Source: Escherichia coli (GTDB taxonomy: Bacteria; Pseudomonadota; Gammaproteobacteria; Enterobacterales; Enterobacteriaceae). Taken from it: DNA of 64,000 nucleotides. A model generated the notes under the pieces. It searched no databases. It saw only the letters and a list, made by a program, of their open reading frames with translations, and was not told the DNA's origin. The position numbers and the translations under genes were made by a program. Numbering within the stretch: the stretch's first letter is position 1; each line of letters begins with the position of its first letter. Positions 19,570 through 20,114 of this stretch are shown here, piece after piece. The stretch lies in NCBI RefSeq assembly GCF_050920415.1, contig NZ_CP169309.1; one strand, written 5' to 3'.

Positions 19570-20114
19570 AAGAAAACATCCCCTGAGAGTTTAATTTTCG
19601 TCAAGATGCGTGGCGGACATTCCCCTGCCAGCGAAACGTTATCTTCCTGTTCCAGGTTTGCGACAATTTGGTGCGTCGCAAAAAAGCAAACGTTTAGCTC
19701 CGCGCATACAAAACGGGTGGTAAAAAAAGCAAACGATTATCCGGCGATCATAGCGGCTTTTTCAACCGAAGTTTGCTGCTTTTTTCTCTTTTATGGTCTT
19801 GACGATGAAAAACCAGGCAATTGATGCGCAAACGTTATCGTCGATGCGCAAGATTGCAGCGTTATCGAGCCGCATACCGTTCAGGATTGCGATAAAAAAT
19901 CGTCTGAGATGACAAAAATATTGCGGCTAAAAAGTATACTTTTACACTGACGAAGAAACGCCGGTGACATACAATTAAAGCATCAACACCAACCGGAACC
20001 TCCACCACGTGCTCGAATGAGGTGTGTTGACGTCGGGGGAAACCCTCCTGTGTACCAGCGGGATAGAGAGAAAGACAAAGACCGGAAAACAAACTAAAGC
20101 GCCCTTGTGGCGCT

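Follow-up and report, generated by a model that had tools for sequence, protein, structure and literature searches.

The soxR-ghxP spacer of Escherichia coli: the known small RNA gene ryjA/sraL beside a PurR-linked control region of ghxP

The spacer between soxR and ghxP (yjcD) in Escherichia coli almost certainly consists of two independent units, both of which have already been described: the small RNA gene ryjA/sraL and the control region of ghxP. The spacer lies within a stretch of 64,000 nucleotides (the window) whose orientation is the reverse of the K-12 map. An earlier reading of this DNA, made from the sequence only, had called the spacer large and had proposed a candidate small RNA within it; the length of 545 bp that it gave (19570-20114) agrees with the gene coordinates. 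The spacer looks large because it contains the sraL gene and, in addition, a long, conserved, PurR-controlled promoter and leader of ghxP. This latter part, about 400 bp of conserved ghxP promoter, PurR operators and leader, had gone unmentioned in the sequence-only reading. When compared with other genera by blastn, the spacer resolves into two conserved blocks, the first running from 20200 down to approximately 19965 (the end of soxR, sraL and the sraL -10 hexamer) and the second from 19851 to 19501 (the region upstream of ghxP), with homology ending at about 19915-19975 on one side and at 19851 on the other. The spacer was found in 5420 of 5426 complete E. coli genomes; in 5400 of these 5420 the sRNA is at least 99% identical to the copy described here, and the whole spacer is at least 99% identical in merely 5. 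Both RyjA/SraL and PurR control of ghxP have been published and carry little weight as a discovery. The practical gain is that the strand and the ends of the sRNA can be placed in the window and that two open reading frames can be dropped. The features of the region are collected in Table 1.

Table 1. Features of the soxR-ghxP spacer and its setting, in window coordinates
Feature	Coordinates	Strand	Basis
ghxP (yjcD)	18220-19569	-	ORF list, annotation
ghxP Shine-Dalgarno AGGGGA, 9 nt before ATG (19569-19567)	19579-19584	-	sequence
Weak PurR-like box 4, AGCGAAACGTTATCTT on + strand	19630-19645	.	8.1 bits, rank 25
Small ghxP leader hairpin, UUUGCGAC-N10-GUCGCAAA	19657-19682	-	covariation
PurR box 3, AGCTAAACGTTTGCTT, ~+30 to +45 in predicted leader	19684-19699	-	18.9 bits, rank 1
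PurR-like box 2, GGATAATCGTTTGCTT, fused to ghxP -10	19727-19742	-	11.4 bits, rank 7
ghxP core promoter: -35 TTGAAA (19765-19760), 18-nt spacer, -10 GATAAT (19741-19736)	19736-19765	-	scan, 10/12 matches
PurR operator 1, ACGATAACGTTTGCGC	19826-19841	-	published ChIP-chip motif; 18.3 bits, rank 2
Lineage-specific filler, upstream of sraL promoter	19852-19946	.	GST-like gene position in other genera
sraL promoter: -35 CTGACG (19947-19952), 17-nt spacer, -10 TACAAT (19970-19975), then TAA	19947-19975	+	scan, 9/12 matches
ryjA/sraL sRNA gene, 141 nt	19982-20122	+	Rfam RF01408, K-12 b4459 identity
Near-palindromic intrinsic terminator hairpin: sraL terminator (+), presumed soxR terminator (-)	20091-20121	.	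perfect stem, folding z-scores
soxR stop codon TAA, inside hairpin 3' arm	20115-20117	-	ORF list, sequence, K-12 annotation
soxR	20115-20579	-	ORF list, annotation
soxS	20665-20988	+	

The candidate small RNA of the spacer is the known gene ryjA/sraL. The plus strand matches the Rfam family sraL (RF01408) at 19982-20122 with 153.3 bits (E 2.5e-36), over model positions 1-142 of 142 and against a gathering score of 39 bits, and this was the sole Rfam family matched when 19300-20700 was scanned at E<=1. In the curated record of K-12 MG1655 the ncRNA ryjA (b4459) is annotated at 4277926-4278066, within the soxR-yjcD spacer as the sequence-only reading had stated, and it overlaps the 3' end of soxR by 8 nt. 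That reading had suggested an alignment to the K-12 coordinates: b4459 aligned to exactly 19982-20122 of the window, with all 141 nt identical and the same ends, which places the RNA on the plus strand from A19982 to about 20122 with the same 8-nt overlap with soxR as in K-12. The full-length covariance model match and this identity together bear out the small-RNA locus. The likeness to K-12 RyjA extends to the strand, the neighbours soxR and ghxP/yjcD, the promoter hexamers bar one base, the terminator and the predicted fold. There are nine differences from K-12 in the spacer, one in the -35 hexamer and eight other substitutions, and each of them falls outside the sRNA, leaving the RNA itself unchanged. 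Transcription of sraL in this strain is thus to be expected, given its identity to the K-12 gene. RyjA/SraL was discovered in 2001, and its Salmonella counterpart is STnc/SraL. Among PGAP-annotated E. coli RefSeq records (38 shown), the sraL match is labelled "none" or with soxR alone. The ncRNA feature ryjA is carried by the curated K-12 MG1655 record only, and readers of PGAP annotation see an "empty" 545-bp spacer.

Loci with SoxR relatives taken from a reference-genome collection were scanned. sraL scored above the gathering score in 25 of 29 Enterobacteriaceae loci, in all instances convergent with soxR and lying between soxR and yjcD/ghxP as it does here; among 9 Erwiniaceae loci scanned, not one gave such a score. 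The RNAalifold consensus of 24 homologues has 35 pairs and an energy of -42.2 kcal/mol, and 7 of the 35 pairs show compensatory changes. These are found mainly in the 5' stem of sraL, where UCAACAC/GUGUUGA is replaced by UCAGCAC/GUGCUGA, UCGAUAC/GUAUCGA and others; the terminator stem contributes one compensatory change, UA to GC in 2 homologues. In Cedecea neteri (L027 3473-3637) an insertion of about 25 nt lies in the variable loop of the 5' hairpin, and the score is still 117.6 bits. The sRNA appears to be confined to the Enterobacteriaceae; the Erwiniaceae (Pantoea, Erwinia, Tatumella and Mixta; L031-L043) keep the order soxR - GST - ghxP.

Promoter prediction on both strands, which the earlier reading had also suggested, returned two promoter-like sites in all over 900 bp, versus 0.4 expected, one for sraL on the plus strand and one for ghxP on the minus strand, each where it was expected. 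The hexamers of the sraL promoter place the start of transcription at A19982. In the alignment the -10 (TAYAMT followed by TA) and a CTGGC -35 are conserved across genera. The combination of a TAYAMT -10 followed by TAA with a weak -35 agrees with what has been reported from Salmonella (PMC3753932). As E. coli lacks a C at -13, its RpoS signature is a partial one. At 19950 this strain has an A where K-12 has a G (CTGACG versus CTGGCG, most other genera having CTGGC), which brings the hexamer one base nearer to TTGACA. From this stationary-phase (RpoS-type) promoter at 19947-19975, sraL would be transcribed towards soxR, and its transcript would end at the intrinsic terminator at 20091-20121 and the U-tract that follows, overlapping the last 8 nt of soxR.

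The stem that had been noted at the soxR stop codon, with arms ctaaagcgcc and ggcgctttag, was found at 20094-20103 and 20109-20118, and the full inverted repeat is a perfect 13 bp (20091-20103 and 20109-20121) around a 5-nt loop. It folds at -23.8 kcal/mol on the plus strand (z -5.1) and at -28.5 kcal/mol on the minus strand (z -6.6), and on neither strand did any of 200 shuffles do as well. The element is almost a palindrome (AAAACAAACTAAAGCGCC-loop-GGCGCTTTAGTTTTGTTC), and on the reverse strand it matches the terminator portion of the sraL model with 23.7 bits (E 0.0086). The sequence-only reading had described T-rich tracts on both strands and a terminator acting in both directions. On the plus strand this was borne out, since TTTTGTTCATCTT follows the stem and the terminator scan, which demands 5 T in 8, was passed (tail TTTTGTTC). 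On the minus strand, however, the full stem is followed by GTTTTCCGG (TTTAGTTTGTTTTCC when the A-T pairs of the stem are included), which holds 4 T in 8 and was not reported by the scan; here it is the near-palindrome that makes termination plausible. Each strand of this near-palindrome reads as an A-tract, a GC core and a U-tract, so that the same hairpin would most likely end soxR transcripts too, and termination of soxR at this shared hairpin is plausible from the sequence. A literature search for a bidirectional terminator at soxR returned nothing specific. Bidirectional terminators between convergent genes likewise consist of a GC-rich hairpin with an A-tract on one side and a U-tract on the other, such that both strands offer a hairpin with a U-rich tail, and they are likewise placed between convergent units, here soxR and sraL. 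The element differs from them in that one of the two units is an sRNA whose 3' Hfq-binding end is this terminator, and in that the U-tract on the soxR side is interrupted (UUUGUUUUCC) and fails the scan rule. Escherichia SoxR has 154 aa versus 152 aa in most other genera (window 20115-20122; loci L005-L071), and the two-residue extension is needed for the stop codon to fall inside the sraL terminator. Elsewhere 8-35 nt separate the soxR stop codon from the hairpin that follows it, or about 150 nt in L005 and about 940 nt in L012.

The shared hairpin raises the question of whether SraL also acts in cis, its RpoS-driven transcription lowering or processing soxR mRNA through transcriptional interference or RNase III. 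We consider this improbable. The 3' ends of the two convergent transcripts are indeed complementary over about 35 nucleotides, the sRNA overlaps the soxR coding sequence by 8 nt and uses the same hairpin, and the convergence is kept in 25 loci, all of which would suit such an effect. However, the complementary part is locked in the terminator stem of each RNA, and the overlap with the coding sequence is not conserved, because in most genera the hairpin lies past the soxR stop codon (by 8-35 nt, and by 150-940 nt in two loci). No report of an effect of this kind was found in the literature searched.

SraL is described as a trans-acting, base-pairing sRNA stabilised by Hfq, and we infer its expression, sigma factor, Hfq dependence and targets from the literature. 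In Salmonella, RpoS is bound to the sraL promoter in vivo, as seen by ChIP, and is needed for induction; SraL decays faster without Hfq, and it represses tig, as was shown by compensatory mutations (PMC3753932). In E. coli, RyjA is one of several sRNAs whose induction falls in stationary phase (PMC12266141), and the RNA has been detected by northern blotting, with an A as its +1 (PMC12956327). Since the full-length E. coli RNA accumulates in a pcnB mutant (PMC5389530), polyadenylation by poly(A) polymerase I (PAP I) initiates its decay. The pairing site of Salmonella SraL in the tig leader is immediately 5' of the Shine-Dalgarno sequence, and pairing results in less trigger factor. SraL also pairs there with the rho leader and so prevents premature Rho-dependent termination, according to the account of Silva et al. 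2019 given in a review (PMC6582626). By analogy with Salmonella, tig and rho may be paired in the same way in E. coli. Duplexes of SraL with the K-12 leaders were computed at -63.1 kcal/mol for tig (shuffled targets -55.5 +/- 5.3, 27 of 300 as good) and at -54.0 kcal/mol for rho (shuffled targets -53.6 +/- 4.9, 128 of 300 as good), energies that are uninformative because full-length folding of the RNAduplex type ignores intramolecular structure. There is a perfect 7-nt match between SraL and tig (GUGCUCG / CGAGCAC, at tig -32..-26), such as chance could give.

The two open reading frames that the sequence-only reading had set aside as non-coding do exist as mechanical ORFs, one of 72 aa on the plus strand (19606-19824) and one of 88 aa on the minus strand (19862-20128), and our results agree with setting them aside. 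A third, of 26 aa (MRCVDVGGNPPVYQRDREKDKDRKTN), lies inside sraL on its sense strand (20017-20097 +) and has no Shine-Dalgarno sequence. That one or more of these ORFs encode small proteins is very unlikely, even though this strain has all three open and K-12 shares every base of 19982-20122, a stretch that contains the 26-aa ORF and most of the 88-aa ORF. Neither of the two larger ORFs, which the Pfam scan covered, matched a family at E<=1. The 88-aa frame is antisense to sraL and was rejected as a gene: in E. albertii and the divergent Escherichia locus L003 the frame is interrupted and leaves fragments of 29-71 aa, the other genera showed no counterpart, and the sraL homologues are separated by 1-nt indels. 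The 72-aa ORF, antisense to the ghxP promoter and leader, was rejected likewise, as Citrobacter and Enterobacter have another frame open there and the genera differ in this stretch by insertions of 30-100 nt. No usable Shine-Dalgarno sequence serves either of the two; the 88-aa ORF has a GGAAG placed right against its ATG, and none precedes the 72-aa ORF. Conservation across the spacer tracks the PurR boxes and the RNA stems, not codons. Citrobacter has CTG in place of the start codon of the 26-aa ORF, ATG here, and this ORF is probably meaningless.

It is scarcely credible that the locus lacks an independent sRNA and holds merely the 3' UTR and terminator of soxR and a long 5' UTR of ghxP, with the hairpin serving soxR alone, for although the soxR stop codon lies within the hairpin, whose folding is slightly more favourable on the soxR strand (-28.5 kcal/mol), and PGAP RefSeq genomes list nothing or soxR alone here, the plus strand matches the covariance model over its full length at the very place of the curated K-12 ncRNA, its promoter is conserved, the compensatory stems are found far enough upstream of the terminator that a soxR 3' UTR would not require them, the Erwiniaceae keep the soxR-GST-ghxP order yet are without the 140-nt block, and the RNA has been seen on northern blots in K-12 and Salmonella (PMC3753932, PMC12956327).

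The second unit occupies the minus strand from 19570 to about 19851, where a sigma-70 promoter of the form TTGAAA-18-GATAAT would drive ghxP. Both hexamers are invariant in 20 aligned sequences from 20 genera, and their 24-nt offset is constant in 28 of 28 Enterobacteriaceae loci and, among 11 Erwiniaceae loci checked, in 8. Transcription is predicted to start near 19729, and the leader would then measure about 160 nt. Three Erwinia loci have the ghxP promoter only about 52 nt from the ATG and so lack the long leader, box 3 and the hairpin included. The CAGGGGAT at the ghxP Shine-Dalgarno sequence shows little or no variation across genera. Reiterative transcription of the UTP-sensitive kind, at the T-run past the predicted ghxP start, was considered and rejected, the T-run not being conserved in Enterobacter, Leclercia and Cedecea.

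Adenine is known to repress ghxP, acting through PurR (PMC3809563, PMC8376909). Table 1 of Cho et al. 2011 lists the PurR motif ACGATAACGTTTGCGC under "ryjA/yjcD", and their ChIP-chip peak covers the whole spacer (PMC3159470). We built a position weight matrix from the 27 other ChIP sites of Cho et al., with the ghxP site left out (training sites 12.2-24.7 bits), and of the 127,970 window positions scored with it those ranking 1, 2 and 7 all fall inside the spacer. Operator 1, the published site, is conserved across genera. Box 3, about 35 nt downstream of the predicted ghxP start, has the best score in the 64-kb window, and its TAAACGTTTGCT is invariant or nearly so across genera; it is absent from the table of Cho et al., which gives 19826-19841, and was not found in the literature searched. 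The score of box 2 is just under that of the weakest training site (12.2 bits), and GGATAATCGTTTGC is invariant or nearly so in 20 sequences. Box 4, with an ACGTTT core that is about 90% conserved, may be a chance match.

In the arrangement proposed here, PurR with hypoxanthine would occupy three operators, one upstream of the ghxP promoter, one over the -10 hexamer and one about 35 nt beyond the predicted start, and the leader of about 160 nt contains a small conserved hairpin. What boxes 2 and 3 and this hairpin would do is inferred from their sequence. The pur regulon includes downstream "roadblock" operators for PurR, a LacI-family protein, as in purB and purR. The ghxP boxes resemble pur-regulon operators in being 16-bp imperfect palindromes with a central CG, in scoring within the range of the ChIP-validated sites, and in belonging to a gene that encodes a purine transporter repressed by adenine. 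They differ in that two strong boxes 142 bp apart flank the promoter, with a weaker one on the -10; the published table has the upstream box only, and boxes 2 and 3 are candidate operators.

Directly after box 3, the small leader hairpin is found in 28 of 28 Enterobacteriaceae sequences (26 of them distinct). Its stem is maintained by compensating changes (GCGAC/GUCGC, GUGGC/GCCAC, ACGGC/GCCGU and AUGAC/GUCAU), 86.7% of cells being paired and 22 changed on both sides versus 8.1 in shuffles. None of 500 shuffles reached the observed count, a significance that is overstated since the sequences are related, and all slid controls were lower. The G.U wobbles fit the ghxP-sense strand only, which points to an RNA rather than a DNA palindrome. 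A terminator was rejected as the function of this hairpin, as the U-run precedes the stem. RNAalifold gave -2.2 kcal/mol and no covarying pair for the ghxP leader, and hence no riboswitch-like structure, and no known RNA family was matched there (Rfam, E<=1). In most genera the loop reads CCCCUUU and is complementary to the Shine-Dalgarno sequence AGGGGA; this is not so in E. coli, and the loop is CACCAAAU here and CAGCAAAU in K-12.

We raise tentatively, as a possibility we rather doubt, that the ghxP side holds regulation not yet described, in which the PurR operator in the leader, likely a roadblock, is combined with the compensated hairpin. If so, the hairpin could add a post-transcriptional layer to the control of the purine transporter, through masking of the Shine-Dalgarno sequence or through mRNA stability. 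Box 3, the second strong PurR box, and the covarying leader hairpin were not found in the literature searched, and both are minor items. Together with the loss of a GST-like gene described below, they would refine the regulation of the purine transporter and change no concept.

Between the sraL promoter and the ghxP control region, other genera carry a gene to which the earlier reading had not referred. A GST-like gene of about 220 aa lies between soxR/sraL and ghxP in most Enterobacteriaceae and Erwiniaceae, and it is absent from E. coli, E. albertii and Citrobacter youngae/werkmanii. No remnant of it was detectable in the corresponding part of the spacer (window 19852-19962; best tblastn E 17). 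Salmonella and most other genera thus differ from Escherichia in having this gene, at the position of STM4267, between sraL and ghxP. In Enterobacter cloacae (L055 3755-4425) the GST-like gene appears to be split into two overlapping frames.
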